Part shown: in pieces, positions 1 through 41,374 of the stretch
Position numbering within the stretch: position 1 is the stretch's first letter
Layout: every line of letters starts with the position of its first letter
From: Dehalococcoidia bacterium
GTDB lineage: Bacteria > Chloroflexota > Dehalococcoidia > Lucifugimonadales > GCA-2712585
DNA: 64,000 bases
Assembly: GCA_965207845.1 (NCBI GenBank)
Contig: CBDBNU010000003.1
Location: 1,385,862-1,449,861, forward strand
Reading direction: 5' to 3'
The notes under the pieces: model-generated
The model's input: only the letters and a program-made list of their open reading frames with translations
The model's database searches: none
Told to the model about the DNA's origin: nothing
Position numbers and translations under genes: made by a program

Positions 1-546
1 ATGGAGCAGATTCAGCCTAACAGCGGACTTGGGAAACCATGCCCGTCTGTTTGAGTTCGAAAGCAACTGGTTGGTTCTGGGATCAAACTAAGATGTGACT
101 CCTACCAAAACGTCCTCACCTTGTTGGGCTGCGGAATAAGCACACGCCAAGAATCTGTCTCGCAGAGTCGATTGCGCACCTCCTGGGCCGCGTTGACAGT
201 GAGTACGTAGGCCTTAATGGTATTACGTTTGTCTTGCACAATCCAACCCATCGCGTCATTTCAATCCCGTACCGGTCCTGTGGGTCGGTGTGACGTTCAC
301 ACTTTCGTCGGCGAGAATCAGCAAGGCTTCTAGTCAAGTCCTCCCTCCCAGCTCTTTCGGGCGTTGACTATTGCCTTGCTTAACTGATGCCCATCATTAA
401 CCTTTATTACTCTTCCAACTCATCTGCAGTCCTTCCTTGGCAGAATCTTGGTATCTTGCGCAATTCGGTTTTCTCAACACCGCTTCCTCGCCGCGCCACA
501 TATGTGGTTTTCTTGTTTCCCCGAATCCGGCCTAGTGTCCTCGACC

Positions 547-3327
547 TTAAGATTCCTCCACTGAAACTTGCTCTTGGAGTCCAAGATCAGTGAGAGCTTG
601 TCGTAATTCCAACTGAAAGCCCTGGGCCAGACCCGCATCGACGCTCACCGAGAACTCGACTCCCACGCTCAGGGCATTCCCAGTACGAAGCTTAGGCAAA
701 ATTCTCGTGCCGAGCCGGTTCCAGACTTCAGGAGGTACAGTTCCTTTGAGCCGTAGGGTTGCTTTCCGGCCCGTCTTAATGGGCAACTGGACCTGGGTTT
801 CATCTGGACCTGGCGATGAGCCCGGCTCACTCGCTTTTTCCTCAATTGGGACTACTTCCGGCTGTACAGGCTTAGCGTTTTCCGAAGCCGCTTGGAGTTC
901 CTCAGCTTTCGCCTTGGTCAACAGGAAGACCCCAGACTCAAATGCCACTTCTTCTGATCCAACCGGTTTCTTGAACCATAATCTTGTGTAGTTGCCGCCT
1001 TCCTTATCTCCGGAGGCGAGACCGAAGTCCCCTTTTTCAACGAACTCCATTATGCGCCGCCGTAGGACCGCATCCGGGTCGATCAGCCGCGTCAGTGCGC
1101 CGTTAAGGAAGCTCTGACGCAGGCTGGTCAACGGCCAAGCTCCGGAGTTTTTGAACGCAGGAGGCCAATGCCTATCGATGTATCCGGCGCCGACGGATTC
1201 GTTGAGTAGCGCACTCGACTTCAAAGCTGCGATGACGCGCCCACACAGAGTCTCGCTACCGCTTGAATGTCCCGCTCCGAGGTCAATGACCTTCAATCCG
1301 CCTTCAGCTTGGTTATCGGCCAGAGCCACAAATCGGTAGCCCCCCCATACTTCGTCTTTCGCTGCTGCCTCCGCTTCCTTTACCATGACCTGAACTTCTG
1401 CTCGGTCGCTACGGTCGAATTCTGCACCAAGGATGCCCTGGGAGACCTCATGGGCGACTCGCCGCCAGGCAAGCAACAGCTCGACACTCTCTCTAAGCTC
1501 GCGGCCTGGCTTCCTTGCGCACCACACCAATGCCCCAGGATATAGTCGCGCCGACCTGCCCCGCTCTTTAGTCCACCTACCGATACGTTCCGCCAGTTGC
1601 TCACCTTCTCTCCACTCTTCCACAGGGTCAAGGACAATCATCGTAAGCCGAAGCGAATCCGGCACCGCATCGCCGTCCTTCGGGAAGTAAACGATCGGGA
1701 CAGATGCGCCGCGAGCGAATTCACCTTCTACTTGTTTACGCAATGCAGGCCTGATCTCTGTCTCCTCATCGAGGGAGGCACGACGGTCGCTAACGACTTT
1801 TCTCAGCGTCGCCTGATGGTGAATGCGGTAGCCGTCAGTGCCCATCTTACGCATGAAAAAGCCGGTTTTCTCCAGGGTTGTCGCAGCATTGTCGACGGTT
1901 GTAGTCTCGACCTCCGGCTCTCCGAGGGCAAACCGCAGCTCCGGCAAGTGGGCAACCTTCTCCACCTGCCCACCGGAAGACTCGAACAGGATGGCAGTTC
2001 CCACCCTGCGGTGGATGTCGCGTAGAGCGCCCTTGAAGTCCACATCGAGGGCCTTGCTATGTGCGGTCTCGCCCGCGATATCCGCATCTATGGCCACGTC
2101 TAGGCGGGACTCGCCCAACTGACCCAGTACCACGGCACGAAACTCGGGCACTTCTAACGGTGCTGAGCCGAGGGTAATCAGGGGCTCAGAGCGAGCGTGC
2201 CGAAACTGGTCCTGCGCAGCCCAAGATATCCACTGCGCCAACATTGCCAAGGCTCCCCTGGTCTGTTGGAACTGAGGAAGGGCGCGCCACTTCCGTTGGA
2301 ATACGGAGAGGGTGGACGGATGGAACGGATAGGACGACTCGAATCGTCTGCGGAGAAAGTCCTGAGCCTTGCTTCCGGTGGTAGCCGTATCTACAACTGT
2401 CCACTCGAAGGGGAGCCTGGCGGTCCTCTCGAAGCACCATTCGGCATAAGTCCTAGACACATTCCGACGGACTCGCTCGCTGCCCAGGTCTTCGAAGAGT
2501 CGACGGCGCACCACTTCGCTTATCTCCGACTCGTCATTCGCAATAAGGTCGCGGGCGACGCGGCGGACAACCTTTGTGATGCGGTCCTGCCATTCCTGGT
2601 CCCACGCTGTCATCTCCACCTGGCTACGCGGCAGGCTTATGACCGCCGCTGCATGAGTCGTTCCAGTGATGGCGACAGTTAAATTTTGGAGAAACGCGTG
2701 GAAACTCTCTGACATGCCTCTGTGCCTATTTACGAAGTTCAGCACTTCGTCGAACAGAATCAACACGGGTGCATTAGCTGCGGCAAACACTCTGGCTAGA
2801 GCTTCAGTCCCCGGCGGTGTCGTCTGCGCTGCGCTGCCCAGTGCGGCAACACCTGCATCTCCCGCAAGCTGTCTAGCCAGATCGATCCATGGTGTTTCTC
2901 TCCCTTCCGACGGGTCCCAGGCGTTACCAACGAAGACACCGACTCGGGCATCAGGGCTATCAGTAACGCCGGCGTTGTGCAGAAGCTCGGTAACGCCGGG
3001 AAGGTTACGGGCCTCTCTTCCCGCATTAGCGAGGTGATATAACGCAGTGAGTGTATGAGTCTTCCCGCCTCCAAATTGGGTTACCAAAGTCAGCACTGGC
3101 GCAGTGTTCTCGGTCCTGCCGAAAAGTCGGCGAAGAACCATGCCGGAATGCTCCGTCAAGGCGCGGGTAAAGCATGTGCGCGAGAAAAACTGCTCCGGCT
3201 CACTGTAGTCCAGAGGCGCAGTTCCCGCCACCACCTGCTCTAAGGCGATAGCAAACTCGTCCGGGCTAAAGGAACGGCCCTCTCGGACTTCCTTGCGTAG
3301 CTTCACTACTCTGTACCAGGGTTGCAT
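547..3327 (-). CDS. DUF499-family P-loop ATPase (COG1483-like), partner of DUF1156 methyltransferase
   Basis: 926-aa ORF. N-terminus MQPWYRVVKLRKEV...FFSRTCFTRAL...TQFGGGKTHTLTALYHLA matches the DUF499 signature, including the GGGKTH P-loop. Its ATG directly abuts the stop of the upstream ORF (3328). Confidence 0.85.
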   Translation of the reverse strand: MQPWYRVVKLRKEVREGRSFSPDEFAIALEQVVAGTAPLDYSEPEQFFSRTCFTRALTEHSGMVLRRLFGRTENTAPVLTLVTQFGGGKTHTLTALYHLANAGREARNLPGVTELLHNAGVTDSPDARVGVFVGNAWDPSEGRETPWIDLARQLAGDAGVAALGSAAQTTPPGTEALARVFAAANAPVLILFDEVLNFVNRHRGMSESFHAFLQNLTVAITGTTHAAAVISLPRSQVEMTAWDQEWQDRITKVVRRVARDLIANDESEISEVVRRRLFEDLGSERVRRNVSRTYAEWCFERTARLPFEWTVVDTATTGSKAQDFLRRRFESSYPFHPSTLSVFQRKWRALPQFQQTRGALAMLAQWISWAAQDQFRHARSEPLITLGSAPLEVPEFRAVVLGQLGESRLDVAIDADIAGETAHSKALDVDFKGALRDIHRRVGTAILFESSGGQVEKVAHLPELRFALGEPEVETTTVDNAATTLEKTGFFMRKMGTDGYRIHHQATLRKVVSDRRASLDEETEIRPALRKQVEGEFARGASVPIVYFPKDGDAVPDSLRLTMIVLDPVEEWREGEQLAERIGRWTKERGRSARLYPGALVWCARKPGRELRESVELLLAWRRVAHEVSQGILGAEFDRSDRAEVQVMVKEAEAAAKDEVWGGYRFVALADNQAEGGLKVIDLGAGHSSGSETLCGRVIAALKSSALLNESVGAGYIDRHWPPAFKNSGAWPLTSLRQSFLNGALTRLIDPDAVLRRRIMEFVEKGDFGLASGDKEGGNYTRLWFKKPVGSEEVAFESGVFLLTKAKAEELQAASENAKPVQPEVVPIEEKASEPGSSPGPDETQVQLPIKTGRKATLRLKGTVPPEVWNRLGTRILPKLRTGNALSVGVEFSVSVDAGLAQGFQLELRQALTDLGLQEQVSVEES

Positions 3328-3705
3328 CTATTCTTCACCTCGCTCCAGATTTTCCCTTGAGCGAATACGTACTCGGTTCCGCGTCACTACAATCAGCGAC
3401 CCTTCGCGCATGGCGTTCGGACGGATCACGATGAGTTCCCGCATAGCCTCGACCTTCTCTGCTACCGGCATATCAACGAAGCGCACTATGCACGGATGGG
3501 GCAGCCCACGTACGAATACCAACTCCCCGAAGTCCTTGTCTTCGGTGATGAGTATCCGGTCCTCCCCCACCGCAAGGGCCATGATCTCTTGATCTGTGGC
3601 TTTCTGATCAACGTCGAGGGCTGACAGAACATCGTGCCCTTCCTCAATCAGCATGGAGTGCATGCTCCGTGACGCCGCGCATACGTCAAGAAGGAATCTC
3701 ATCAC
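3328..3705 (-). CDS. DUF5615 (Mut7-C/PIN-like) putative toxin
   Basis: 125-aa ORF. The motif DQEIMALAVGEDRILITEDKDFGELV is typical of DUF5615 proteins. It starts 2 nt after a DUF433 gene. Confidence 0.75.
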   Translation of the reverse strand: MMRFLLDVCAASRSMHSMLIEEGHDVLSALDVDQKATDQEIMALAVGEDRILITEDKDFGELVFVRGLPHPCIVRFVDMPVAEKVEAMRELIVIRPNAMREGSLIVVTRNRVRIRSRENLERGEE

Positions 3706-3707
3706 GC

Positions 3708-3956
3708 CTACCGGACGGCCATGCGCTCATGTACCTGCTCACCTGCCATTGAACGGTGGGCGTACAGCAGGCACGCTCGAATGTCGTCGGACTCTAGGAA
3801 TGGATACTCACTCAGAATCTTTTCCGTCGTTTCGCCAGATGCAAGCATTCCCAGGACGTTCTCCACCGATATCCGCATATCGCGGATAATTGGCTTACCC
3901 CCAAATACGTCCGGGCGTACAGTAATGCGATGTAGAATCTCGTGATCGTCTGTCAT
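3708..3956 (-). CDS. DUF433 putative antitoxin
   Basis: 82-aa ORF. ITVRPDVFGGKPIIRDMRISVENVLGMLASGETTEKILSEYPFLESDDIRACLLYA matches the DUF433 pattern. Confidence 0.8.
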   Translation of the reverse strand: MTDDHEILHRITVRPDVFGGKPIIRDMRISVENVLGMLASGETTEKILSEYPFLESDDIRACLLYAHRSMAGEQVHERMAVR

Positions 3957-4010
3957 GGCTCGTCCTCCTAACTTGGTTCTGTTGCACTTATCTGGGTGAT
4001 CACCACCGGG

Positions 4011-4343
4011 TCATACGCCATGTTCCAAGTAACTCTCAGCCATGGAGTCCGCAAGATCGGCAGCAGCAACGGATAAATTGGTGAGCACAGCCATGAATGC
4101 CAAACGTCTCTTCTGTGCAAGTGCGATATTCTCCTTATCGCAAGTCCAATCTTTGGAAACCTCGTAATACCGTTTACACGCTGCGTCTAGTAGTTCCTGA
4201 TAAGCGGGGGCAAAAAGGCACTCGACCCACTCTCTATCCTTTCCCGGAATAGGCAGTACGGTTGAATTGAACATCAGCGGATTTTCGTATACATATCCGG
4301 AATTGTCCTCTCCGACGATGGTGTCATAGCTACCGATACTCAT
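4011..4343 (-). CDS. hypothetical protein (no recognisable domain) inside the DUF1156/DUF499 operon
   Basis: 110-aa ORF, co-directional, 66 nt downstream of the methyltransferase. No motif recognised. Confidence 0.5.
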   Translation of the reverse strand: MSIGSYDTIVGEDNSGYVYENPLMFNSTVLPIPGKDREWVECLFAPAYQELLDAACKRYYEVSKDWTCDKENIALAQKRRLAFMAVLTNLSVAAADLADSMAESYLEHGV

Positions 4344-4409
4344 TGACTTTCTCCTCCGTAATTGCTACCCGGCGAATTGCAATAGAGCCGCTAAGCTTGT
4401 TTGATTGAG

Positions 4410-7409
4410 TTACCTAGGTGCTGCTAATAGCATAGCATCCAGCAGTCGCTTCTCCTCGCTCCCGCGCGGGTAGAGGGCGGTAAGGGCGTTTGCGAGGCGA
4501 AGGAATTCAGGGCCGCGGTCCTGTTCTGAGCGTAGCAGGTTGCGCAGGGCTTGGCTCCGGCCTGAAGCTTGCAGCAGCATGGCCGCATGAACCCGATCCA
4601 GCGTGGTCGCGGACAACGTCAGCCCGGAGCTGTCGTCGATCGGAGATGATGACCTTCTGCGACGGCGTGTGCGGCCCCGTATTGGCGGGGCGCCCTCCGG
4701 AAACAGGCTCAGCTGGGGATTGACATTCGCTACCGACTCCATCTCGTTGGCAATTGTGTCGGTTCCTGACTCACCGAAGAGCTGCTTGCTCCGCTCGGTG
4801 ACGGGGAGCAATCGCACCACGCCCTTCCTAGTCTCGATGATGCGGGCCTCCCATTCATCCAGATGGATTCCCAAAGGTTGGGCGAACCGTCGCGCTACGT
4901 CGAATGGCAGGCTGAAGCCGTACGACTTCCTGCGTGGCGCTCCATCCTCTTCGTCGTTGGAGTCCGTTCCGTTTGCGGGGTGCGGAACCTCCGACGTGCT
5001 TTGCATGGTCCAGAGGAACAGTGCAGTCAGGCGGGAGTCCTCCTCCAACGGACCTGCCACACCGTTGCGGGCCTGAGCCTCCGCTGTACCCAACACCTGC
5101 TCCAACGCCTCGCGGCCGACGACCTCCCACACCTTTTCCAGGTACTCCGGCAGACCGACTTCCCGGCCTTCCGCTGTCTCTACGGCGCGATATCGGCTGT
5201 AAATCTCCAGGGCCGGGCCAACGCAGGCGAACACTAGATCCGCGCCCCGGACACCCTCTCCTTGGAGCCGCTGCATCCAATCGCCAACACGGTCAGGCAA
5301 TTCCTGCAGAACGTCGGCCCAATCGCCTATCGGCGCATCCTCTGGCCGTGGGCGACAGATTAGATGGATGCTAGTGGCCAAAGCCGCGGATTCACGAGCA
5401 CGAAGCCGCGAACCCATCTCAGTAGAAATGGGCCAGGAACCTGTGATAGTCCAGCCGCCACGAGTCATGCCGGAAAGCAGAGCCTCCCACCCCTCAGTGG
5501 TCTTGTGGGCAAATACCACTGAACCTACGCCATCCTCACGTAGCACGCGGCGACCTTCGTAGAAGGCCTTTGCCATTGCCTCTTCAAACCACTGACGGGT
5601 TTTGCGCCGTCCACCATCGAGTTTTGTTTCGTCTTGCACGATCTCTCGCACCTTGGGTGACGACGGATTGTCTAGGTGGAACGGATTTTGCAGTAGAGAG
5701 TGAATTGGAAGAGAGCGCTCAAGCCAGACCAAGAAGAAGTCGGCAAGATCGGCGTAGGGCACCGCGTCGTAATATGGAGGATCCGCAAAGTAAGTGCTCG
5801 CTGCTTGGTCAGGTAGCGGGTGCTTAGTGGCATCCACGGATTGAACCTGACCTATATTCGAGAGGTTTTGTTTCTCAATTACCTTCGCAACCCACTCTAC
5901 ATGGGCCATCCAGTTGCCCGTCGCGTTGCAAAGAGGGTTTGATTCTGTAAAATCCCATACCATTGGCAGCACTTGTCGGGCGAAAAGGTGAGAAACCTTT
6001 TCGCCCGACAAGTGCCATGACCCTAAATTAGAACAATAATCTGCATTTTTTGAGACAGCCAGTGCCAAGCTGGTGCGTACTGGATGGAGCGTGGACTCGC
6101 CAACTACTTTATTTACGAGACTTACCAGCAGAGTTAACGCAGCCTTCTGACGAGCGGTGAACAGGTCTCCCCATTGGAACATTCCGTATCGTTGGACACT
6201 GAAAGCTCGACCTGCACCGGAGCCTCCACCCGCCGGAGTCGACTCATTGGGCACGGGGCTTAGTCCCTGTCTCCCACTCCGCTCCCATTTTCCAATAATG
6301 CTCGCTGTGCGCTCTTGTGCAAATCGAACTGCAACGTAGTCGGCATCGGTAGGCAGTCGGTAGTGGCGACCTTTTTCACCAGACTTGAGCGTAACCACAG
6401 CAATCAAGCGTGCACCACCGACGCGGTTACAATTCTCGTCGAATACCGCGTCTGCACCGCCGCGCAGTGCAGAAATCTGAGCGCGGACTCGTTGCGGCGG
6501 TAGCACTACGCCGCAGCAGATGCATGTTGCCTTTGCGCGAGAGACCGTGCCGTTGGCTACTTCTCTATCGGACTCCGGCTGGAATATCTCGAAATCAATT
6601 TGTGGAGGCCCATCGGTGGACTGCTTCTCTTGGGGTCGCAGCGCGAACTTTCGGTTGGGCTTCCGGCACAACCACATAGAGCGCATCAGGGGAATCTCGG
6701 CGCCACAGTCAGGGGCCTCGCAACGCACTGTCCGCGCCCAGAGATAGGCTATGGTCGTCGCGCCGTCCGGGTCTTTAGGGTAGAGGTCGGCCAGTTCCTT
6801 TTCAGCCTGGGCCTTGATCTCTGCACCAGCCTTGCGCAGTTCATCGGCCAATCCGGGGCCGTGGCGAGGAATGTCCTCCAGCAAAACCTTGAGGATCAGG
6901 CAGGCGACGGGATTGAGGTCGCTGGCAAAGGTGTCGCAGCCGAGGCGCAGGGCTTCAAGGGGAATGGAGCCGCCACCCGCAAAGGGGTCCACCACCAGCG
7001 GGGTCTCCTCCGGGTGTGCGGCCCTCACTAGGTTGCGCCCAGTCTCTAGGTACTCCTCCTTTGCCGAGTTATCCCAGTTGGCAAAGTCGGCGATAAACTT
7101 CAGAAGGGCTCGCCGAAGACCCACGTCCGCCTTGATCTGCTCATCCCACCCGCCAGGGCGAGTTCTCATCGCCAGCAGAATCTCCCGCGCACGGGTCTTG
7201 AATGCCTGCGGGCAATGTTCGTCGCACGGGTCCGGCAGTAGCAACTCCATGAGCACAGCCCGCGACGATGCTAAGGGCCGGCGCGCCCACCAGAGATGCA
7301 GCGTTGAAGGGTGTCCATGCCGGATAGACTTTTCCCGCACCGCGTGCCGTGACACCTCCGCAATGGGGAAGTCAACCTCGGCTAGGCGTTTACAGGCCGC
7401 GGGGATCAT
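4410..7409 (-). CDS. DUF1156-domain DNA methyltransferase with Zn-ribbon (COG1743-like; N6-A/N4-C class)
   Basis: 999-aa ORF. N-terminus REKSIRHGHPSTLHLWWARRPLASSRAVL is the DUF1156 hallmark. AdoMet motif VVDPFAGGGSIPLEA, catalytic FADPPYYD, and Cys pairs CEAPDCG...CICCG (Zn ribbon). Confidence 0.9.
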   Translation of the reverse strand: MIPAACKRLAEVDFPIAEVSRHAVREKSIRHGHPSTLHLWWARRPLASSRAVLMELLLPDPCDEHCPQAFKTRAREILLAMRTRPGGWDEQIKADVGLRRALLKFIADFANWDNSAKEEYLETGRNLVRAAHPEETPLVVDPFAGGGSIPLEALRLGCDTFASDLNPVACLILKVLLEDIPRHGPGLADELRKAGAEIKAQAEKELADLYPKDPDGATTIAYLWARTVRCEAPDCGAEIPLMRSMWLCRKPNRKFALRPQEKQSTDGPPQIDFEIFQPESDREVANGTVSRAKATCICCGVVLPPQRVRAQISALRGGADAVFDENCNRVGGARLIAVVTLKSGEKGRHYRLPTDADYVAVRFAQERTASIIGKWERSGRQGLSPVPNESTPAGGGSGAGRAFSVQRYGMFQWGDLFTARQKAALTLLVSLVNKVVGESTLHPVRTSLALAVSKNADYCSNLGSWHLSGEKVSHLFARQVLPMVWDFTESNPLCNATGNWMAHVEWVAKVIEKQNLSNIGQVQSVDATKHPLPDQAASTYFADPPYYDAVPYADLADFFLVWLERSLPIHSLLQNPFHLDNPSSPKVREIVQDETKLDGGRRKTRQWFEEAMAKAFYEGRRVLREDGVGSVVFAHKTTEGWEALLSGMTRGGWTITGSWPISTEMGSRLRARESAALATSIHLICRPRPEDAPIGDWADVLQELPDRVGDWMQRLQGEGVRGADLVFACVGPALEIYSRYRAVETAEGREVGLPEYLEKVWEVVGREALEQVLGTAEAQARNGVAGPLEEDSRLTALFLWTMQSTSEVPHPANGTDSNDEEDGAPRRKSYGFSLPFDVARRFAQPLGIHLDEWEARIIETRKGVVRLLPVTERSKQLFGESGTDTIANEMESVANVNPQLSLFPEGAPPIRGRTRRRRRSSSPIDDSSGLTLSATTLDRVHAAMLLQASGRSQALRNLLRSEQDRGPEFLRLANALTALYPRGSEEKRLLDAMLLAAPR

Positions 7410-9388
7410 TTGTGCCGTGCCTCGGATTGAGTCTTGAGGGAAACAACATTGTTGATGATAGTCTTCATAGACTCGCTGGACTTACCGTTTAATGTTGCAT
7501 TCTTGACGACAAATCCAAGAATCGATGGATTTTTGAGCGCGTGGTCTCTCTTGAGGATGCCTAATTCTTGTTGGGCCCTCGATAATTCTCGTGTGAATGG
7601 TTCCTTGCCTATTTCATCTTCCAAAGTCTTTTCTAAATTTACCTTGAAACAAGCGAAAGATTCTTCGATGATGCTTGGCCAATCTTCTTCGGTTTGGCCA
7701 AGAAGCTGGAGTAGATATCTGTTAGTTTCAGGTTTTCCATCCCTGTTGCCACAATCGCCGTCCCATACCACATACACCGGAATGCTCAGTTGTCTGAAAA
7801 TCACCAAGGGTCGGTCAAGATTGTTCTTGCCAAAACATGGAATGATCGTAATGCCCATACCATCAAGGTCAAGGTTCATTGATTTTGCGAATCCAAGAAT
7901 AGCAGCTCGGTCATCCTCTCCCTCAACCAAGACTACTACATCGGCAAAGAATCCCTCTCCCATCCAGGGAGTCATTAGGGATCGGAGGCGGGGCTGAAGT
8001 GTGTCAGACGTAAATTTTGCACCTTTTCGGCCACTCGCACTCCAAAGTTCGTCAGCGACTGCTTCCATATTGGCTGTCTTGAGTTGCGTACTCCTAGCCT
8101 TACCTTTGGCATGAGTAACCTTTCGCAAGACTCGTATCTGGTCGAAGCGGTCTAGCCCAACGAATAACGGGGAGTGCGTAGCGTAGATTACCTGAGTGTT
8201 TTGGGCGACCCCCGGGATCACCCCTGTAGACAGATTCAACAAGACCGTAGCTAGATGACGTTGACGGCTAGGATGCTGGTATAGCTCCGGTTCCTCAATT
8301 GCAAGAACAAGATTTGGCAGGAGAGGACCTTTGGCTTCTGCACTAGTCTCGTCTTCTTCGTCGGTCCCGCTATTCGGCGTGGGATCCGAATGTCTGATGG
8401 CGTCAAGATGTTGCAACATCGTGATGATGAAAGCCCGTTGGAGACCGTGCCCTGTCCTCTCCACCCTAGATTCGTATTCATCCTCTAAGAGCTTGACTTG
8501 TGCTTGCGGCAAGGGTATCGAGATCTCCATGAGTTCAGACCAGTTGAGGAGCACTTTTGTATCCGGTACGTATGATTGAAGAGTCGTGGACAAGTCATCT
8601 GCTAAATTGTCCAATTCCGTTAGCTTCCTTGGGTCCATTACTTGCTCATACTCGTCTTGTGTACGTTGTTTGAAATCCGCTACATCTTTTCTCTCGGAGA
8701 GCGCACTTCGGACAACCAGATCCATAATTTCTGTGACTGATGCTCCTCTCCTCTCATTTGCATCCTCCATAGCATCTCTCACAGCCGGTATGAATATGAA
8801 CCTAGTATATCGGCCGAGATAGCCTTGACCTACTTGTGTAAAGCCAAAGAACTGCCCATCGTCACGTAGTGGCAAACACTTGTCAGGATTCTGGTTTTCC
8901 CATTCGGCTAAATTCTGTCGTACCGCATCTGCTGAACGCGCAGCGGGCAAAGATGAGTATTCTGGGGTTTTCCTAAGGGCAGTGTAAGCCCGATTAACGT
9001 CCCTAGCGCCACCAGCATTTCTTACGAACGCAAAATCTTGATTCTGCAGCCGCATTCCATGATAAGTGCCTGACTTCCCCTTCTGCGGATCAGAAAAAAC
9101 CCTAACTACCGTTAGTGTGTCATTATCAAGATAAGGCGAGAAAAACTCCCTGGCTTCTTGACTAAGGCCTGAGAATGTGACGGCTATCTCAATATCTTGG
9201 GTCAAGTCTTCTGAGTAAAAATCCTCTACCGCCACCCTCGCTGATACGTTATAGAAGAGTTCTAGCGCGTTCAAAAATGAGGACTTTCCAGAACCGTTCC
9301 GCCCAACCAGTGCCGTAAGAGAATCACAGGGTAGGGTCTCATCAAAGATAGACCGCAAATTCTTCACATGGACTCTTTCAATCAGCAA
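7406..9388 (-). CDS. OLD-family nuclease (ABC-type ATPase + Toprim)
   Basis: 660-aa ORF. Walker A GRNGSGKSS, Walker B LVLAIEEPELYQHP, H-loop ATHSPLF, Toprim VVLVEGEDDRAAI and VVWDGDCG. Overlaps the methyltransferase start by 4 nt. Confidence 0.85.
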   Translation of the reverse strand: MLIERVHVKNLRSIFDETLPCDSLTALVGRNGSGKSSFLNALELFYNVSARVAVEDFYSEDLTQDIEIAVTFSGLSQEAREFFSPYLDNDTLTVVRVFSDPQKGKSGTYHGMRLQNQDFAFVRNAGGARDVNRAYTALRKTPEYSSLPAARSADAVRQNLAEWENQNPDKCLPLRDDGQFFGFTQVGQGYLGRYTRFIFIPAVRDAMEDANERRGASVTEIMDLVVRSALSERKDVADFKQRTQDEYEQVMDPRKLTELDNLADDLSTTLQSYVPDTKVLLNWSELMEISIPLPQAQVKLLEDEYESRVERTGHGLQRAFIITMLQHLDAIRHSDPTPNSGTDEEDETSAEAKGPLLPNLVLAIEEPELYQHPSRQRHLATVLLNLSTGVIPGVAQNTQVIYATHSPLFVGLDRFDQIRVLRKVTHAKGKARSTQLKTANMEAVADELWSASGRKGAKFTSDTLQPRLRSLMTPWMGEGFFADVVVLVEGEDDRAAILGFAKSMNLDLDGMGITIIPCFGKNNLDRPLVIFRQLSIPVYVVWDGDCGNRDGKPETNRYLLQLLGQTEEDWPSIIEESFACFKVNLEKTLEDEIGKEPFTRELSRAQQELGILKRDHALKNPSILGFVVKNATLNGKSSESMKTIINNVVSLKTQSEARHK

Positions 9389-9395
9389 GGCTTTG

Positions 9396-9614
9396 TCACT
9401 TTATTCGTTTGGTTGGATAACGCTCTCTGATGTGCTTATGGAAGTAAGAGCCTTTGGAGCCCGCTTGCATAAGGCTTATATTGACTGTTGTAGGCACGTT
9501 TGCGTATAGGTAAATTCTGCCTCCATGAAACTCAATCTCTAAGGTTTGTGTTAGTGGGTCATAGCCTACTGAGAGAATGTTACTTGACCTGATTCGTTCT
9601 CTATCCATCAGCAT
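9396..9614 (-). CDS. KTSC-domain protein (copy 1)
   Basis: 72-aa ORF. SSNILSVGYDPLTQTLEIEFHGGRIYLYANVP...SKGSYFHKHIRERYP follows the KTSC pattern. Its start overlaps the helicase stop by 14 nt. Confidence 0.8.
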   Translation of the reverse strand: MLMDRERIRSSNILSVGYDPLTQTLEIEFHGGRIYLYANVPTTVNISLMQAGSKGSYFHKHIRERYPTKRIK

Positions 9615-12600
9615 TCTCGATTCCGTACTCCGCCCGATCCTCCCGCACCTGCATCGGCTTGGTCATAGAGTCCACTTCCAGCCAGTAGTGCTGCAATTTG
9701 CTGACCTCGTGCCAGGGGAAACGGGCAGGATCCTCAATGGGCTCTTGCAACTGCGGCTCAGCGGCACAGTTCGTCACTACGTAGAGCCAGTAGCAGTCGC
9801 GGCGGTCCTCGGCCACGCGGCGCTCATTGGGAGTTAGTAGGATCGTGCCCGATTCGGCAGCTAAACCCTTGACTTCTATGAGGCGCAACTCGCCGGACAC
9901 GACGTCCAGGCTGGTTACGTCGTAGCCCAGATTCTTCTCATGCACGTCGCAGACCTGTTTGCCCTGAGCTGCTTCGTACTCCATCACGACTTGCATGGCG
10001 GTCATCTCGGTCTCGGCGTTAGGACGCAGGCGCTTCACCTCGGGTGCCTCACGCTCCGGGTGAGGCAAGATAAGTGCACCGGCGAGCCGTTCGACGCCTT
10101 GGAGTGTGAGCGCCCGCTGTTGCCTGAGTTCGCTTCTCCGCCGTTCACGCCGCGCCATGGCCTCGTCGTGGCGGGCTTCGGCCTGGGCGAGACGCCCTTC
10201 CGCGCCGACGACCCGATTCTCCAGGTCCTCGGAAGCTCGGCCAATCTCTTGGTCGATTCGCTGAAGCACCTCAGTCAACGACAGTTCAACGTGCTCGGCG
10301 ATCCGGTCCACTTCGTCCAGACGCTCGTCGCGTACTTCTTCGATGAAGGGTGCGAGGGCGTGCTCATGCAGCCATCCTGTGGCTTCAGGGAGTGCGGCGG
10401 CAGCAGGGAGATTGTGCGGAGGGGGTGCGGGAATAAGATTGCCGAGAATATCAGCCTCTCTCAAGCCTGGCTCCCCGGTCTCCGTCAGTTCCACGACGAA
10501 CAGCCGCTCGTGGATAACGTGGCCGAGGCCGTCAACGACTCTGGCACGGTAGACATCGAGACGGGCCGGTGCGTTGTGGTCGAGGGAGTAGAAACACGCA
10601 CCCATGGCGAAAGCATCCCTGCTGGTTTCGACGCAGTGACGGCGGAGCGCTTCAAAGAGGGGATGTCCGGGGGTTACCCATTCCAGGTTGTGTGCCTCTG
10701 CCGTGTCTCGGTCTGTCGAAAGGCGGGAGTAGCGTGTCAGGAGATCTGAGAAACGCCAGTCGGAATCGCGTTCGTATTTCCGCAAGGAGGTCGGTGTACG
10801 GCCCGGATGGAATGCATGTCGTAAGTTCGTAACTGGATTAAGTGCAAACGCTGCGATTTTGGAACTCTCTGACAGAAATCTAGCGATGGTCTCCGGCACC
10901 ACTCGACGCTCCTGGGCCCGGGCACGGCGCTCTACCAACATCTCCAAATTGAGCTTCTTGGCAGCCAGACCTTCCAGCGCAGTCTGGCAGATCTCACGGA
11001 AGCGTCCCTCGTCCACGTCTCGCAAAAGCCGGTTCTCCAAGTCTTCTGGTCCCAACTTACCGGAATAGTAGTCGCGGAAAATTCGGTCAACCTGAGCGGC
11101 TGGCAGAACCTCGCCAACCACATTGAAAACAGCGTCGTCGTCGAGGGCGTCGCGAATCTCCTGAAGCTTCGAAAGCAGGCGTTGGAGCACCCTTCCTTCG
11201 ATAGTGTTCGTGGCGACAAAATTGAAAATAAGGCAGTCTAGGCGTTGCCCATAGCGGTGGATTCGCCCCATCCGTTGTTCGAGTCGATTTGGGTTCCAGG
11301 GGATGTCGTAGTTGAAGAGAATATTGCAGCATTGAAGGTTTATTCCTTCACCGGCGGCTTCCGTCGCCACCAGCACTTGAATTTGGCCATCTCGAAACTG
11401 TTGTTCCGTGTAGAGGCGGGAACCAGGCTCATCCCGCGAGCCTGGCCTCATGCCGCCATGGATGGAGCCCACACGGAAGCCCCAGGATTTCAGCCTGCCT
11501 ACCAGGTAGTAGAGGGTATCCTTGAACTCCGTGAAGATTAGCAGGCGTTGGTCAGAATTGTCGAAAAACCCCTGCTCATGCATGATTTCGTTGAGGCGGG
11601 TGAGTTTGGCCTCCTTGTCCTCCGCCTCGACAGTTACGGCCTGCTGCGCAAGCTGTCGGAGTTCGTCAATCTCCTTCCGAACCTCATCAGCGTTCCCGGC
11701 CAATGTGACTGCTTCTAACATCCGTTCCAGCCGCTCTCGCTCCCTGTCTTCCAGTTCTTCCAATTCCTCCCAATCAGGGAGGTCTGGAGGCGCTTTCTCC
11801 GCCAAGTCTTGTGCTTGCTTAAGTCCGTCCTCCAGACGCTTGGATCGGTTCTCCAGCGACCGCTGCATTGCATGGGCGCTTGAGGCTAACCTCCGTTGGT
11901 ACAATGACATGAGGAAACCGACGGCGCGCGCCCGTGGGTCGTCACCCTGAGATGCAGCTCTGGCACTTTGCCGCTTCACGAATCGGGTTACGTCTCTATA
12001 CAGATCAAATTCTGGCCCGTCCATTGTGAAGCTAGCGGAGTTTGTGACTCGCTTCGTAAACACAGGCTTGGCTGTCCATGTGCCGTCTATGTGGCGATCG
12101 GGGAAATAAACCATGGCTTCCTTGGTGCGGCGGAGGTAGAAGGGCGCCCGCCTGCGCTTCATCGCCTCTCGTATAGACTTAACGTCGGCATATGCATCCT
12201 TGTCTAGAAGTTGTAGAAACAGAGTGAAGTTGTGCGGGTCTCCCTTGTGAGGCGTAGCGGTAAGAAGCAGAATGTTGTCGGCGTTATCCCGCAACATTTC
12301 ACCAAGTCGGTAACGCTGACTCTTATGTGTCTCGTCGCTTGCAGACATACGATGGGCTTCATCAACTATCACGAGGTCCCATTGTACTTGGCGAAGGCCG
12401 TGGAGAATGTCTTCCCTCTTGGCTAGGTCGAGGGAGGTGATGGTCTGCCTCTGTTCAAGCCACTGATTGATGCCGAACTGATTTCGAATGTCTCCGCCCT
12501 TCAGTACAAAGAACCGCTCGTCAAACTTTTCATTTAGTTCTCGCTGCCACTGGAAGGTTAGGTTTGCCGGGCACACTACAAGGACTCGTTCAGCCAAGCC

Positions 12601-13044
12601 TCTAAGCTTCAGTTCTTTGATAAGCAGTCCGGCCATGATTGTCTTTCCGGCTCCGGCGTCATCGGCCAGCAGGAACCGTACGCTAGGGAGCTTCAGCAGA
12701 TAGTCGTAGATGGCTTCAAGCTGATGTGGAAGAGGATCAACTCGCGAAATGGATAGACCGAAATACGGGTCAAACTCGTAGGCGATGCCGAGAGAGTGGG
12801 CTTGGAGGCCAAGTCTGAGTAGCCTCCCGTCCCCATCGTAAGAGAGGGTGCTGTCGGCAATGGTTAATTCCGCAATATCGGTCGAGGTTATAGTGACCTG
12901 ACGGAATAGTTGGGTCCGCTGTCCGACAAGGCCCGCCTCGACGGAGCCAGCTCCGTTCGAACGGACGGTCACCACCCGCATCGGCTCATTGAACAACGGG
13001 CCAGTAAGGACCTGACCTTCACGTATTCCAATTTCGGTCGTCAA
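9601..13044 (-). CDS. SNF2/DEAH helicase fused to C-terminal DUF3883 (PD-(D/E)xK-like) nuclease domain
   Basis: 1147-aa ORF. LADDAGAGKTIMAG (motif I), VIVDEAHRM (II), LLLTATPHKG (III), WNPNRLEQRMGRIHRYGQ (VI). C-terminal GYDVTSLD...LRLIEVKG...YWLYVV is typical of DUF3883. Confidence 0.9.
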   Translation of the reverse strand: MTTEIGIREGQVLTGPLFNEPMRVVTVRSNGAGSVEAGLVGQRTQLFRQVTITSTDIAELTIADSTLSYDGDGRLLRLGLQAHSLGIAYEFDPYFGLSISRVDPLPHQLEAIYDYLLKLPSVRFLLADDAGAGKTIMAGLLIKELKLRGLAERVLVVCPANLTFQWQRELNEKFDERFFVLKGGDIRNQFGINQWLEQRQTITSLDLAKREDILHGLRQVQWDLVIVDEAHRMSASDETHKSQRYRLGEMLRDNADNILLLTATPHKGDPHNFTLFLQLLDKDAYADVKSIREAMKRRRAPFYLRRTKEAMVYFPDRHIDGTWTAKPVFTKRVTNSASFTMDGPEFDLYRDVTRFVKRQSARAASQGDDPRARAVGFLMSLYQRRLASSAHAMQRSLENRSKRLEDGLKQAQDLAEKAPPDLPDWEELEELEDRERERLERMLEAVTLAGNADEVRKEIDELRQLAQQAVTVEAEDKEAKLTRLNEIMHEQGFFDNSDQRLLIFTEFKDTLYYLVGRLKSWGFRVGSIHGGMRPGSRDEPGSRLYTEQQFRDGQIQVLVATEAAGEGINLQCCNILFNYDIPWNPNRLEQRMGRIHRYGQRLDCLIFNFVATNTIEGRVLQRLLSKLQEIRDALDDDAVFNVVGEVLPAAQVDRIFRDYYSGKLGPEDLENRLLRDVDEGRFREICQTALEGLAAKKLNLEMLVERRARAQERRVVPETIARFLSESSKIAAFALNPVTNLRHAFHPGRTPTSLRKYERDSDWRFSDLLTRYSRLSTDRDTAEAHNLEWVTPGHPLFEALRRHCVETSRDAFAMGACFYSLDHNAPARLDVYRARVVDGLGHVIHERLFVVELTETGEPGLREADILGNLIPAPPPHNLPAAAALPEATGWLHEHALAPFIEEVRDERLDEVDRIAEHVELSLTEVLQRIDQEIGRASEDLENRVVGAEGRLAQAEARHDEAMARRERRRSELRQQRALTLQGVERLAGALILPHPEREAPEVKRLRPNAETEMTAMQVVMEYEAAQGKQVCDVHEKNLGYDVTSLDVVSGELRLIEVKGLAAESGTILLTPNERRVAEDRRDCYWLYVVTNCAAEPQLQEPIEDPARFPWHEVSKLQHYWLEVDSMTKPMQVREDRAEYGIENADG

Positions 13045-13129
13045 CCGTTGTTTCCTCTCTAGGACTTATGGTGAATAAGCAACAACATCGGCTGCTTGGC
13101 TATCCTAACACAGCCTCCCAAAGCATCCA

Positions 13130-13474
13130 AACCGTCTCTTTGAATTCAACTCTCCACGTAGTTGGGAGTCCCGTCCGGACCCCTTCGAGGGGGTAAGGAG
13201 TCAGATACCGGAATGGTTGCAGAAGCAGCCCGATGGCGGAATCTCTGAATTGATGAATCAGATGATCAAGCGATACCCGGAGCGTTACATCAGGTGTCAG
13301 CTTCGCTCCTTATAGCTCCGGGTAAGGCCGTGTCACAGTGTAATGGCCAACAAACTCGTGTATGCTTCGACTGAAAAGAGTAAGATCGATGAGGAACGAC
13401 TGGGTAGAATCAGACCTGTGGGCGTCATTTGGAATCCACGAAACTTCGGTGACATCCTCCGGTGAGGCAACGGC
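13130..13474 (+). pseudogene. 3' remnant of the rve-type IS (same family as 21976-24980), including its terminal repeat
   Basis: Translates to SWESRPDPFEGV..EWLQKQPDGGISELMNQMIKRYPERYIRCQLRSL*..ANKLVYASTEKS, parallel to the C-terminus of the 23368-23562 ORF. Ends with CTTCGGTGACATCCTCCGGTGAGGCAAC, the uninterrupted version of the terminal repeat that IS110 splits at 21995/23302. The 5' limit is approximate. Confidence 0.6.
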
Positions 13475-13500
13475 CCAGCAAGAATTATTGTCGCTGTTCA
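13475..13500 (-). repeat. IS21 left-end copy (inverted orientation), abutting the rve-IS remnant
   Basis: CCAGCAAGAATTATTGTCGCTGTTCA matches the reverse complement of the IS21 left end (58180-58205) at 24/26 positions. Confidence 0.6.
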
Positions 13501-13532
13501 GCCTGTCGACGATGCGTCCGCTCTCGGCCTCG

Positions 13533-13676
13533 TCATCCTACTCCCAGATAGCCGTTCTTCTCTGCGTAGTCCCTCAGCGCCGGTAGCTGGGCGGCCACGG
13601 ACAGGTCCACGTCCTGGCGGTCGCTGGAGACCCTTGCGTAGAGGGCCGCGGGTATAAGATCGAGTCGGTCGTTCAT
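13533..13676 (-). pseudogene. N-terminal 47-codon remnant of a large serine recombinase
   Basis: Hand translation MNDRLDLIPAALYARVSSDRQDVDLSVAAQLPALRDYAEKNGYLGVG* parallels the N-termini of the recombinases at 54589 and 57746 (ALYARVSxxRQDxDLSVAAQLRAL). It is truncated about 35 nt from the IS21-end copy. Confidence 0.7.
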
Positions 13677-13750
13677 CACGTTTTCTTCCTTGTTCATTCC
13701 TGTTTGGTTTTCGCGGGCCTCGGCCTAGTATTTTGAGGCCGCGGAAAGCC

Positions 13751-14236
13751 CTATCGTCGCCGCGAATGACGCCTCCGCTTCGAGGCTTGTGGCCGGTCGT
13801 AATCCATTTGCCCAGTTTCCATTTGCTTCTTCCATCTCCAAAGGAGTATGCCTACCCCTACGATGACAACAGCACCAATGACATTGCCTCCACGAAGAGC
13901 TTGCCACGCATCCCCACGCAGCCCAGGTATAACAAGAGAGCCGATGACCACAGCTACTGCTACGAGAATTAGCCGAAATGGATGGGTGAATATGTGGCCG
14001 CGAAGGATGGCAAGAGTAGCCGCCATGAGAAATGACAAACCGAAGAGAAAACCCTGCCCGAACGCCCACTGCCTCAACGCGTAAATGCTGATAGCGGTGA
14101 TTAGGAACGGCAGCCAGGGTTGCTCTCCTTTCAATCCTCGGCGCCATCTGTCGCGGGCATCCTTGATTTCCCTCGCCAAGAATCTGGATACGAAGCTGAG
14201 GGCAAATTGCTTTAGCCTGTCTGTCTTGCGCCTCAA
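13751..14236 (-). CDS. hypothetical integral membrane protein (about 4 predicted TM segments)
   Basis: 161-aa ORF with hydrophobic stretches PWLPFLITAISIYAL, GFLFGLSFLMAATLAIL, LILVAVAVVIGSLVIPG and VIGAVVIVGVGILLW. Its ATG overlaps the RHH stop by 4 nt. Confidence 0.55.
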   Translation of the reverse strand: MRRKTDRLKQFALSFVSRFLAREIKDARDRWRRGLKGEQPWLPFLITAISIYALRQWAFGQGFLFGLSFLMAATLAILRGHIFTHPFRLILVAVAVVIGSLVIPGLRGDAWQALRGGNVIGAVVIVGVGILLWRWKKQMETGQMDYDRPQASKRRRHSRRR

Positions 14237-14457
14237 CCGTCCGTTCCCTTGTTGGCTTCACCGTGATCGGTAGACTGGCGGGAGCGAATCCATTCCAGCC
14301 GCTCCCGTCTGCGCCACTCCCGCTCCTCCATGAACAGGCGGATGGCTTGCCTGAGCAACTCGCTCACGGAGAGGTCTTCTTCCTGCATCACATGCCGCAC
14401 CTGCGCCTCCATCTCGGGGGGCAGGGAGAATGTGATGGTCTTGGAAACCCTCGACAT
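14233..14457 (-). CDS. ribbon-helix-helix (CopG-like) protein
   Basis: 74-aa ORF. KTITFSLPPEMEAQVRHVMQEEDLSVSELLRQAIRLFMEEREW is a paralog of the RHH ORF at 57743-57958. Confidence 0.75.
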   Translation of the reverse strand: MSRVSKTITFSLPPEMEAQVRHVMQEEDLSVSELLRQAIRLFMEEREWRRRERLEWIRSRQSTDHGEANKGTDG

Positions 14458-14463
14458 GGGCAG

Positions 14464-15369
14464 CTACTCCGCGCTCTGCTCACTTGCTCGAATGATCTCG
14501 GCCTCGGATGAAGCGTAGACAAACCTCTCGGCGCTTTGGTAGACACACACATTGGCAAGATCCATTTCTCTTTCGCTCATCGCTACCATTCGCGGGGCCA
14601 GGCCGCTCTCCCCGCGGGCATCCCCACACATGCCCATCAGGTTCAACTCTGCCGAAAGCGGCATAATGAACCACATCCAGTTGCGATATTCGGGTTCAGG
14701 GCCAAGGAGTAAGGAATTCGAAGGGATATCCGATGTGATGAATTTTCGCCCATGGAGGGCTTCGTCGAATCGCCAACTACCTTCTTCGTACCATCGGTAT
14801 CGCAGTTCCCCTTCTTCTCCCCGCAGGAAGGGATCTATGCGAAGTGCCTCGAACTTTCGGTCGCTGTCAATGCCAGCCATCTCCCTAAACAGCGGGAACA
14901 CAACCTGCCACTGCTCGTCCAAATCGGGAAACCTTGCACGAAAGTCCACTTCTATGGCTTCGAGCTTATCCCGGAACTGTAGACGTATCTCCTTCACAGG
15001 CTCCCTCATTTGTTCGCGGAAGCCACGGCTTCGTAGCTTTGAGTCCACAACGAAACGCGCCAGCCACGCTCTCAAGGTGGCGGACTCCTCGCGGTCAGAA
15101 ATCAACTCGTTCAGTTCAGAAGCACTCTGCCCATTGAGAGTCTGGAGAATTTCCGCCCACTGATCTTCTCGTTGCTGGAGGATTGCATCATTCGCGACGG
15201 AATAGGCGTCTCTCGACACTTCTACGTTTTCGATGGAACGCACTGCGACCCCTGCTTGAGGATTGTTTTTGTCGAAGGCATATATCTGCTCGGGGCGGCT
15301 GTCCAGAGAAAAGCCGCGCAGATACAACCTCGGGACAAAGTGCTTTCTTGTCTTGTCTATCTCGAACAT
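14464..15369 (-). CDS. DUF4238-domain protein
   Basis: 301-aa ORF. N-terminal KHFVPRLYLRGFS is the DUF4238 hallmark (H-[FY]-V-P-x-F-Y-L-x-x-F). Confidence 0.8.
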   Translation of the reverse strand: MFEIDKTRKHFVPRLYLRGFSLDSRPEQIYAFDKNNPQAGVAVRSIENVEVSRDAYSVANDAILQQREDQWAEILQTLNGQSASELNELISDREESATLRAWLARFVVDSKLRSRGFREQMREPVKEIRLQFRDKLEAIEVDFRARFPDLDEQWQVVFPLFREMAGIDSDRKFEALRIDPFLRGEEGELRYRWYEEGSWRFDEALHGRKFITSDIPSNSLLLGPEPEYRNWMWFIMPLSAELNLMGMCGDARGESGLAPRMVAMSEREMDLANVCVYQSAERFVYASSEAEIIRASEQSAE

Positions 15370-16157
15370 CTCTCTTTTGCCTATGTGTGTAGTGCAATGT
15401 CTTACTCTTCACTCTTACGACACCTGCCTTCAAGCCCTACCAGGGGCCGACTGCTGCCACCGCCGGTATAGGCTTCCGCCTGCGCCCCGGCATGTCAGAT
15501 GCCATCATCTGTGGGCCGAGGATGGCGGCGTATTGAGGCACGACGACGACCCTCGCAAACCTCTCCATCATGATGACGGACCGGTCGAGGGCGGCGTAGC
15601 CGCCAAATTGGGCGTATCAAACCGGTGCGAAGCGAGCCGCCTGCTCCACCATCTGAGACAGAATCGAGAATCTGTCAATTGACGTTCATGCTGGAATTGT
15701 AGACTGAACTCTCCAGTAGTGTACGAGCGTGACAGTTTGCTCGTCTGTCTACGGATGAATGAAATCTTATTCATCGGCGTATTCCTGTCCCTCCGCATTT
15801 GATGGGAATGAGGCTTGAACCCCCGCATTCAATGTAGTTCATTCACCGTCACTCCTCTTCTGAATCGATACAGCACAATTCGGCCCTTCCCATCTGGAAT
15901 GTAGTTGCACTGGGTGCCCAACTTCACCCGACTAACTGAAGGGTTTGTTCTTCCTTGTGGGGTCTCCCGCCAGATAGGTTATGTCCATTCCTATAGTAAC
16001 CGATGGCTCTCCTCACCATGAGCAATCCAACTCATCTAAGGGAACTTTCCCCTCCCCTACTTGTCCTATTTTAACTGAAGTTCCACAACCCCATGGCTGT
16101 GTTTGCCGCATGGGACTCGATAAGGCTCTGAAGATCGTTCCACATTTCGCCGGACAA

Positions 16158-17837: not shown

Positions 17838-17933
17838 TTGGATGTCACCTCTTCGTAACTTGATGGTATGTGTGATTCATGTTCGAGAAATCCCCGCCGG
17901 ACCATGATCCCATGGTTTCTGAAGTTTATCCTG

Positions 17934-19002: not shown

Positions 19003-19033
19003 TAAAGAATTGGGCGATGGAAAGGAGGTCACG

Positions 19034-20125: not shown

Positions 20126-20128
20126 CCG

Positions 20129-35563: not shown

Positions 35564-35721
35564 GATGCCGGAGGCCTCACCACATACCCGTCTCGTGGAA
35601 GCTTCCGAGGCGGCATACGCCTCTACAGTTGAAGCCGCCCGGTTGAGGCGCGAATCCCTCCGAGACTCTATAATCAGCCACATTGGCTCTAGACAGGAAG
35701 CGTAACCAGGAGGAGACAACG

Positions 35722-37571: not shown

Positions 37572-37587
37572 GGTCGCAGGCCAGGCT

Positions 37588-41373: not shown

Positions 41374-41374
41374 C

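Follow-up and report, generated by a model that had tools for sequence, protein, structure and literature searches.

A Dehalococcoidia Hma defence system that very probably carries independent cargo in both of its intergenic slots

Hma systems and the core of the locus

Hma (helicase, methylase, ATPase) systems were named by Payne et al. (2021), with 1,638 instances in 26 phyla (PMC8565338). The HmaA of a Halomonas system protects E. coli from phage T4 by itself, a defence that needs the SNF2 domain and residues D1084, E1104, K1106 and E1121 of the NOV_C nickase (Liu et al., 2024; PMC11232893). A 2026 study in Nucleic Acids Research renamed such systems DUF499-centred BREX-related (BR) systems; the type 1 form combines an ATPase, with or without an N-terminal HEPN domain, a DUF1156 N6-methyltransferase and a helicase fused to a restriction endonuclease (SNF2-REase), and the proposed mechanism resembles restriction-modification (RM): self DNA is marked by the methyltransferase, scanning and recognition fall to the DUF499 ATPase, and restriction to the helicase-nuclease (PMC12839542). 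Here we describe a cluster of eight genes at positions 547-13044 of a 64-kb window, the whole stretch of DNA analysed, from contig CBDBNU010000003.1 of a Dehalococcoidia bacterium. It is very probably an RM-like Hma (type 1 BR) system in which both intergenic slots, between hmaA and hmaB (the A-B slot) and between hmaB and hmaC (the B-C slot), are filled with independent defence cargo.

Embedded genes are common in Hma systems: 931 of 1,485 (62.7%) contain them, 96.7% of the embedded genes are co-oriented, and seven of nine Hma-embedded candidates tested gave phage defence alone (bioRxiv 10.1101/2024.01.29.577857). An insertion hotspot between the hma genes was likewise described by Liu et al. 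(PMC11232893). Modules of the OLD/TOPRIM ABC-ATPase type are the commonest Hma cargo (bioRxiv 10.1101/2024.01.29.577857; PMC12839542), and OLD-ABC/TOPRIM and PIN "backup effectors" have been reported within BREX and BR loci (PMC12839542). An initial annotation of the window singled out the physical separation of the three core genes. The separation is real, but it is no unusual trait, since embedding is the norm. Two alternatives were offered at the time, of which the nesting of defence genes in a defence operon is the better supported; the other, a new multi-effector variant of an uncharacterised system, has less in its favour.

The three core genes lie on one strand in the order A-B-C, and each matches its PADLOC model strongly. 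hmaA (9601-13044, minus strand, 1147 aa) is aligned to HmaA over residues 7-1091, nearly its full length (E = 9.4e-176), and comprises the Pfam domains SNF2-rel_dom, Helicase_C and, at the C terminus, NOV_C (PF13020, formerly DUF3883), a PD-(D/E)xK nuclease. Its motifs include a Walker A (GAGKT at 131), a DEAH box at 228 and the nuclease signature D...IEVKG at 1056 followed by NERRVAE, which corresponds to the D/E-x-K/E residues mutated in the Halomonas protein (PMC11232893). hmaC (547-3327, minus strand, 926 aa) matches HmaC over residues 1-845 (E = 7.8e-95) and Pfam DUF499 (2.4e-14); it encodes a STAND/ORC-like ATPase with a GGGKT Walker A and the motif LILFDE at 189, and has no N-terminal HEPN domain. 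hmaB (4410-7409, minus strand, 999 aa) matches HmaB (E = 7e-118) and Pfam DUF1156 (1.1e-20), with methyltransferase motif I (DPFAGGG) at 141, motif IV (DPPY) at 543 and a variable insert of about 400 aa between them. The core of the cluster is an Hma system, in the non-HEPN form of a type 1 DUF499-centred BR system.

The domain calls of the initial annotation were all borne out by profile searches against Pfam. Its claim that the trio had no established name fails on the PADLOC matches to HmaA, HmaB and HmaC, proteins already named as Hma (PMC8565338) and renamed as type 1 DUF499-centred BR (PMC12839542); its claim that no mechanism was established fails on the T4 defence that HmaA alone mounts through its NOV_C nickase domain (PMC11232893). 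Because the core is named and partly tested and the principle of nesting is published, the locus is not the undescribed system it had been taken for.

HmaB belongs to the N6-type DNA methyltransferases, with its variable insert as the presumed target-recognition domain. Relative to its homologue in a nearly identical locus, L083, residues ~250-650 are only 42-70% identical, whereas both ends are 86-96% identical. HmaA and HmaC co-diverge tightly (Mantel r = 0.93); HmaB distances give a weak r = 0.37 against HmaA and r = -0.02 against the embedded OLD nuclease. HmaB thus looks like a protein with a swapped target-recognition insert, which would give differing methylation specificities. In the mechanism suggested by the literature, HmaB would mark host DNA by methylation at a motif set by this central insert, HmaC would recognise unmarked or invading DNA and license HmaA, and HmaA, a predicted SNF2 translocase and PD-(D/E)xK nickase, would move along the target DNA and nick or cleave it.

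The A-B slot holds genes for a KTSC-domain protein (9396-9614, minus strand, 72 aa) and an OLD-family nuclease (7406-9388, minus strand, 660 aa); the B-C slot holds an orphan gene (4011-4343, minus strand, 110 aa), a DUF433 gene (3708-3956, minus strand, 82 aa) and a DUF5615 gene (3328-3705, minus strand, 125 aa). The first pair would supply a class-1-like OLD, an ATP-dependent Toprim nickase/exonuclease that would nick DNA, and the second group a VapBC-type pair whose PIN toxin would cause arrest at the RNA level. These self-sufficient modules would probably act as second-line effectors once the core is evaded or inhibited.

All eight open reading frames (ORFs) are co-directional on the minus strand, as had been claimed, and the junctions computed from the ORF coordinates, -14, +7, -4, +66, +54, +2 and 0 nt from hmaA to hmaC, reproduce the earlier values. 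The start of hmaB and the stop of OLD overlap as ATGA; the stop of DUF5615, the last gene of the predicted toxin-antitoxin (TA) pair, directly abuts the hmaC ATG (0 nt), again as first described. Good ribosome-binding sites precede hmaA, the orphan (a strong GGAGGAG), DUF433 and hmaC. Homologues of the KTSC protein start mostly at the position of its Met3, from which the overlap with hmaA would be 8 nt instead of 14. The Pfam match of the DUF5615 protein begins at residue 2 of its ORF; the true start is likely the ATG at 3702, and the gap to DUF433 is 2-5 nt. Neither revision alters the overall picture. Inspection of the sequences finds the catalytic motifs intact in all enzymes of the cluster. 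The cargo is foreign in composition relative to the hma genes: the GC content of third codon positions (GC3) is 0.44 for KTSC, 0.475 for OLD and 0.505 for the orphan vs. 0.61-0.64 for the hma genes, and in 12 of 15 embedded loci the GC3 of KTSC-OLD lies below that of the flanking hma genes.

Scans for sigma-70 promoters and intrinsic terminators over positions 1-14500 returned five promoter-like sites (6.3 expected by chance) and seven terminator-like sites (13.2 expected). None of the consensus matches within this region falls in an inter-gene gap on the minus strand, a result that is uninformative; the sigma-70 consensus may not be that of the host. When the 66-nt gap, the 54-nt gap and the sequence downstream of hmaC were folded, the z-scores were 0.1, 1.7 and -0.7, and hence there is no structured element at any of the three places; neither gap contains a terminator-like hairpin. 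A single translationally coupled transcript of the eight genes, as suggested at the outset, is plausible. The overlapping codons, the hairpin-free gaps and co-orientation as the rule for embedded genes all argue that the cargo is probably co-transcribed with the hma operon.

The KTSC-OLD pair and the slot between hmaA and hmaB

The OLD protein matches Pfam AAA_15 (1e-34) and OLD-like_TOPRIM (5e-18) and the PADLOC model Old (1.5e-53); in the PDB its top match is 6p74 (1e-22), from the Thermus scotoductus class 1 OLD. With an N-terminal ABC ATPase (Walker A GRNGSGKS at 29, Walker B EEPE at 361) together with a Toprim domain at the C terminus that has the catalytic Glu (VLVEG at 486) and DxD (DGD at 543), it has the domain make-up of class 1. 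Class 1 OLDs have been reviewed as "single genes" (PMC10568477); one of them, the Vc OLD of Vibrio cholerae, nicks DNA and stops the phage genome from being replicated (PMC12392090). No GajB-like (UvrD-like) helicase, retron reverse transcriptase or separate Toprim gene lies beside the OLD gene of the window, yet a KTSC gene lies directly upstream.

The KTSC protein matches Pfam KTSC (7.3e-24), PDB entry 7x8c (4e-20) and, in the defence HerA of Paenibacillus SIR2-HerA, the C-terminal arm (PDB 8wiv, 5e-13; PMC11472057); PADLOC has no model for KTSC. Aravind and colleagues mention operons of HerA, KTSC and an endoDNase and call KTSC nucleic-acid binding (PMC9503650). The KTSC protein of the window is probably a nucleic-acid-binding adaptor or regulator of OLD. 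A literature search found nothing that links KTSC (PF13619) to OLD.

An OLD-centred genome survey yielded 80 loci, 78 of them with sufficient flank. In 43 of the 78 (55%), from many bacterial phyla and from archaea, a KTSC gene precedes OLD at a distance of 5-54 nt, and at least 22 of these 43 have no hma genes in their flanks, again in both bacteria and archaea. Distances between KTSC proteins track those between OLD proteins (Mantel r = 0.61; 0 of 2000 permutations). The adjacency, the hma-free loci and the co-divergence together establish KTSC-OLD as a conserved, autonomous two-gene module. OLD loci scored as KTSC-negative contain no divergent KTSC gene detectable by Pfam; their neighbours are WYL, Fic or unknown genes. 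Longer N termini in the OLD ORFs of L068 and L075 raised the question of a KTSC-OLD fusion, which was ruled out by the absence of a KTSC domain. In three loci KTSC stands just downstream of OLD instead: L040 (8315-8500), L077 (8930-9097) and L112 (7899-8108), the last an IMG/VR viral contig. The association therefore survives a changed gene order. As a partner of a class-1-like OLD lineage, found mostly outside Hma, KTSC is the sole element of the locus that is modestly new. The pairing is a small addition to the classification of OLD proteins, reviews of which ask whether class 1 OLDs have partners.

Fragments of hma genes flank free KTSC-OLD pairs in Dehalococcoidia, Acidobacteriota and Thermoguttaceae. 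These stubs derive from the 3' end of hmaA or the 5' end of hmaB and are degenerate, with in-frame stops and frameshifts; they lie at 9701-9784 and 11977-12108 in L001, 2318-2491 in L021, 8368-8547 and 9549-9689 in L025, and 1890-2884 in L028. They would fit either of two histories: the Hma genes degenerated and their cargo outlived them, or the cassettes are mobile through recombination in these conserved ends. The second belongs to a broader proposal, which we regard as a tentative possibility: KTSC-OLD would be a distinct two-component OLD module, unlike a single-gene class 1 OLD, in which KTSC is required as a nucleic-acid sensor, adaptor or brake of the nuclease and which moves in and out of the A-B slot by recombination in the conserved hmaA 3' and hmaB 5' ends. 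Slot exchange of this kind would explain the stubs beside free KTSC-OLD in the four loci.

The arrangement seen in the window is shared. The order hmaA..KTSC-OLD-hmaB..hmaC recurs in about 15 other genomes or contigs of different phyla (L003, L014-L018, L020, L031, L045, L050, L053, L060, L083, L096), and so is no chance juxtaposition. Extra cargo between hmaA and KTSC is frequent (RmuC, YhcG/DUF1016 nuclease, Schlafen, HTH-NTPase); RmuC, YhcG nuclease or Schlafen genes stand beside KTSC-OLD in L003, L014 and L015. L083 is nearly the same composite as the window, with identities of 96% for HmaA, 94% for KTSC, 90% for OLD, 94% for DUF5615 and 94% for HmaC, and lacks the orphan.

The contents of the slots vary among relatives at 60-88% HmaA/B/C identity. 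L082 (HmaA 88% and HmaC 84% identical) has the block orphan-DUF433-DUF5615-hmaC, and its A-B slot is occupied by an MNT-like gene, not KTSC-OLD. An hmaB-centred metagenome survey added relatives at 60-65% HmaB identity, among which only L096 has KTSC-OLD; the A-B slot is empty in L091 and filled with unrelated genes in L085, L087-L089, L092, L093 and L095. Proteins of 649-721 aa occupy this slot in L085, L088 and L097, and two to four genes do so in L089, L092 and L093. A different OLD, without KTSC, takes the same slot in L068 and L075. In the same survey the B-C slot proved as variable as the A-B slot.

An integrated system would account for part of this evidence. KTSC-OLD, perhaps with the TA pair, would then be a fixed subunit in this Hma sub-lineage, for example an additional nuclease that HmaC or HmaB licenses, or a guard that the Hma complex keeps inactive and frees upon its inhibition, much as EcoprrI does with PrrC; PrrC and BrxU provide precedents (bioRxiv 10.1101/2024.01.29.577857). 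The order hmaA..KTSC-OLD-hmaB in about 15 loci of Latescibacterota, Bacteroidota, Verrucomicrobiota, Acidobacteriota, Desulfobacterota, Spirochaetia, Bacillota (Desulforudis) and Synergistota is what such a subunit would leave behind, as is the DUF433/DUF5615 pair, which in L082 and L083, the closest relatives, directly adjoins hmaC and in L053 is found near upstream of it. We consider this explanation unlikely, because KTSC-OLD is mostly free-standing, as in the hma-free loci counted above; in close relatives of this Hma it is absent or other cargo is present (L082, L091, L085, L092); cargo and hma genes disagree in GC3; another OLD lineage, one without KTSC, uses the same slot; and Hma-embedded and free copies are interspersed on the OLD tree. 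The nearest named relatives of the window OLD are Chloroflexota; those of its HmaA are Latescibacterota and Spirochaetia.

Some observations do weigh against the reading of the inserts as independent cargo of an RM-like core. The 4-nt overlap of the OLD stop and the hmaB start is kept in most loci that have the order of the window, across phyla. OLD distances correlate with those of HmaA (r = 0.56) and HmaC (r = 0.60), each with 0 of 2000 permutations, and this co-divergence is compatible with a closer functional tie than hitch-hiking; both points also speak for an integrated system. Internal promoters may exist within the operon. As to the core itself, in the one Hma studied overexpression of HmaB left T4 sensitivity unchanged and HmaA was sufficient (PMC11232893), so that the methylation-dependent self/non-self logic of Hma is still a hypothesis. 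Independent cargo nevertheless remains the preferred reading: the frame made by hmaA and hmaC is stable, the contents of the slots can be exchanged, and one recurrent, partly co-inherited and self-contained cargo is KTSC-OLD.

The small-gene block upstream of hmaC

The three small genes of the B-C slot comprise an orphan and a probable TA pair. The 110-aa orphan has no match in Pfam, PADLOC, NCBIfam or PHROGs. Searches turned up only five close homologues, and the two whose contigs were examined (L081, L082) sit between hmaB and DUF433. A profile search of 1.8 billion proteins found 12 representatives at E<=1e-3, none annotated; a distant relative, P0127, lies on a short contig without hma genes. 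An AlphaFold model built from six sequences shows two long C-terminal helices at a pLDDT of 52, which is poor and makes the model unreliable.

The DUF433 protein matches its Pfam family at 1.4e-22 (COG2442; a VapB-type antitoxin and DNA-binding family). The DUF5615 protein matches Pfam DUF5615 at 1.2e-17, with weak matches to PIN_10 and Mut7-C (COG4634/Mut7-C-like PIN) and acidic motifs LLD at 5 and TEDKDF at 54. Gene order, families and acidic residues identify the two as a predicted PIN-COG2442 TA pair of the VapBC type. The COG2442/DUF433 family has been validated as the antitoxin VapB10 of VapBC10 in Synechocystis, and VapB10 binds its own promoter and activates transcription from it (PMC3834315); DUF5615 has been classed as a potential TA toxin, and DUF433-PIN pairs within type I RM operons were noted by Matelska et al. 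(2017; PMC5499597). The DUF433/DUF5615 pair lies directly upstream of hmaC in L003, L053, L082 and L083, abutting it in L082 and L083 as in the window and 14 nt away in L053; in L060 DUF433 alone occupies this position.

The 54-nt gap upstream of DUF433 contains a perfect 10-bp palindrome, GGTGATCACC, at 3995-4004. It is kept in L081 and L082, with a partial match in L083, and may be an operator. Its conservation is uninformative, since it is confined to very close relatives.

These features raise the possibility that the orphan, DUF433 and DUF5615 serve mainly as a regulatory or addiction module rather than as an effector: DUF433, as an activator or repressor, would give hmaC an internal promoter, and the PIN-like toxin would stabilise the island. 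The self-activation of the related VapB10 (PMC3834315), the palindrome 5' of DUF433 and the position of the pair against hmaC in the window, L082 and L083, and close to it in L053, are in keeping with this role. It is rather doubtful all the same: conservation of the palindrome was observed in very close relatives only, a TA pair is missing from this slot in many Hma loci, and the uninformative sigma-70 scan gave no promoter consensus in the gap.

The orphan also bears on the explanation that the initial annotation favoured, a categorically new defence system of eight genes. The exact set of eight, orphan included, was not found elsewhere in the surveyed loci, and even the closest of them, L083, is one gene short. 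Set against this, each of the three core genes fits strongly into a system that has a name and has been characterised in part, every type of cargo comes from a known family, and embedding in Hma is published, which together make a new system extremely improbable. An Hma core with independent cargo in both slots accounts for the same genes. As a clean and intact example, the locus represents a widespread defence system for which the nickase activity of HmaA is established and methylation and a role of the ATPase are proposed. L083, nearly identical and different mainly in the methyltransferase insert, and the relatives with other cargo offer a test bed for the independence of cargo vs. its coupling to the core. 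The findings at this locus do not overturn current understanding.

The surrounding island and known systems

The whole 64-kb window is a defence island, probably on a mobile element. Just upstream of hmaA, at about 13540-13677 (minus strand), a truncated N terminus of a serine recombinase/resolvase (…YARVSSDRQDVDLSVAAQ… then a stop) is probably the scar of a mobile element. The stretch at 14464-18863 (minus strand) encodes a DUF4238 protein, a SEC-C-motif protein and a CBASS-like SMODS cyclase (a 154-aa ORF, possibly truncated) with a patatin phospholipase. At 19010-20689 (plus strand) and 22004-23107 (minus strand) lie a helix-turn-helix + Peptidase_M78 (IrrE/ImmA-like) gene, a weak PIN-like gene that follows it and, nearby, an IS110-family transposase. 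A SIR2 and HerA pair lies at 25918-28992 (minus strand); Pfam shows no KTSC domain for this HerA. The gene at 29840-35563 (plus strand) encodes 1907 aa with DUF4011, an AAA_11/AAA_12 helicase, an MTES_1575 REase and DUF3320. A type I RM system follows at 35683-44485 (plus strand), with hsdM at 35683-36792, hsdS at 38136-39410 and hsdR at 41255-44485; the gaps between the hsd genes contain further ORFs (e.g., 39407-40093 and 40636-41373), possibly another case of embedded genes. Finally, 46655-60544 (plus strand) encodes a TrwB-like coupling protein, a Replic_Relax/TrmB (relaxase-like) protein, a GmrSD type IV restriction enzyme (51104-52861) and a Mu-type transposase (57993-59732), genes that point to an integrative or conjugative element as the carrier of the island.

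Type 3 BREX (BrxC/BrxXI/BrxHII) and DISARM, with DrmD, have ATPase, methyltransferase and SNF2 helicase modules homologous to those of the cluster. The cluster lacks PglZ, BrxA/B/L and DrmA/B/C, and its HmaA carries an REase domain rather than relying on PglZ. The helicase matches the PADLOC models BrxHI/II (5e-109), DrmD (1e-123), DpdE and ZorD more weakly than HmaA, in every case over the shared helicase core only; its NCBIfam DrmD score is 345 against a cut-off of 610. In the PADLOC search none of the eight proteins matched PglZ or DrmB, and a DrmA match was again limited to the shared helicase core. BREX (types 1-6), DISARM, Dpd, Zorya, MADS, Gabija and PARIS were each rejected: their signature partners are missing, and the matches are confined to helicase or P-loop cores common to many systems. 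Type 2 BR (DUF499_antiphage, DUF1156_antiphage and a phospholipase-D helicase) was rejected as well, with NCBIfam scores of 90.5 vs. 1200, 187 vs. 1000 and 168 vs. 1100. Scores so far under the cut-offs do not belong to the phospholipase-D subtype, and the helicase of the cluster has NOV_C instead.

Among the cargo, the OLD protein shares with the class 1 OLDs (P2 Old, TsOLD 6P74 and Vc OLD) an ABC ATPase and a Toprim domain in one polypeptide and the lack of a downstream UvrD-like helicase. Unlike the "single-gene" class 1 OLDs (PMC10568477), its lineage has a KTSC partner in 55% of the surveyed loci, often inside Hma. The ATPase-Toprim logic and the embedding habit are common to HEC-04/HEC-01, PARIS and Gabija, but the best PADLOC model of the window OLD is Old, not HEC-04, AriA/AriB or GajA, and there is no AriB or GajB partner. 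The DUF433/DUF5615 pair has the same antitoxin-then-PIN order as VapBC10 (PMC3834315) and the DUF433-PIN_10 pairs of type I RM (PMC5499597), whereas the window pair, a predicted TA, lies inside Hma and abuts hmaC. HerA-based defence systems (8WIV; PMC9503650) join KTSC to a hexameric HerA ATPase; the KTSC of the window is a separate 72-aa protein and has OLD as its partner.

The Halomonas meridiana HmaABC (PMC11232893) has the same HmaA architecture and D / E-x-K / E motif as the locus described here; its hma inserts, Septu, PARIS, Ppl and AAA_21 pairs, differ from the cargo seen here. KTSC-OLD, the orphan and DUF433/DUF5615 are not among the described Hma-embedded set, HEC-01 to HEC-09: of the HEC models in PADLOC only HEC-01A matches, at residues 2-45 of OLD (the N-terminal P-loop), and none matches the other cargo. 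With Hma (Payne et al., 2021), or type 1 BR, the cluster shares all three proteins, their order and their orientation, and co-oriented cargo in both slots.

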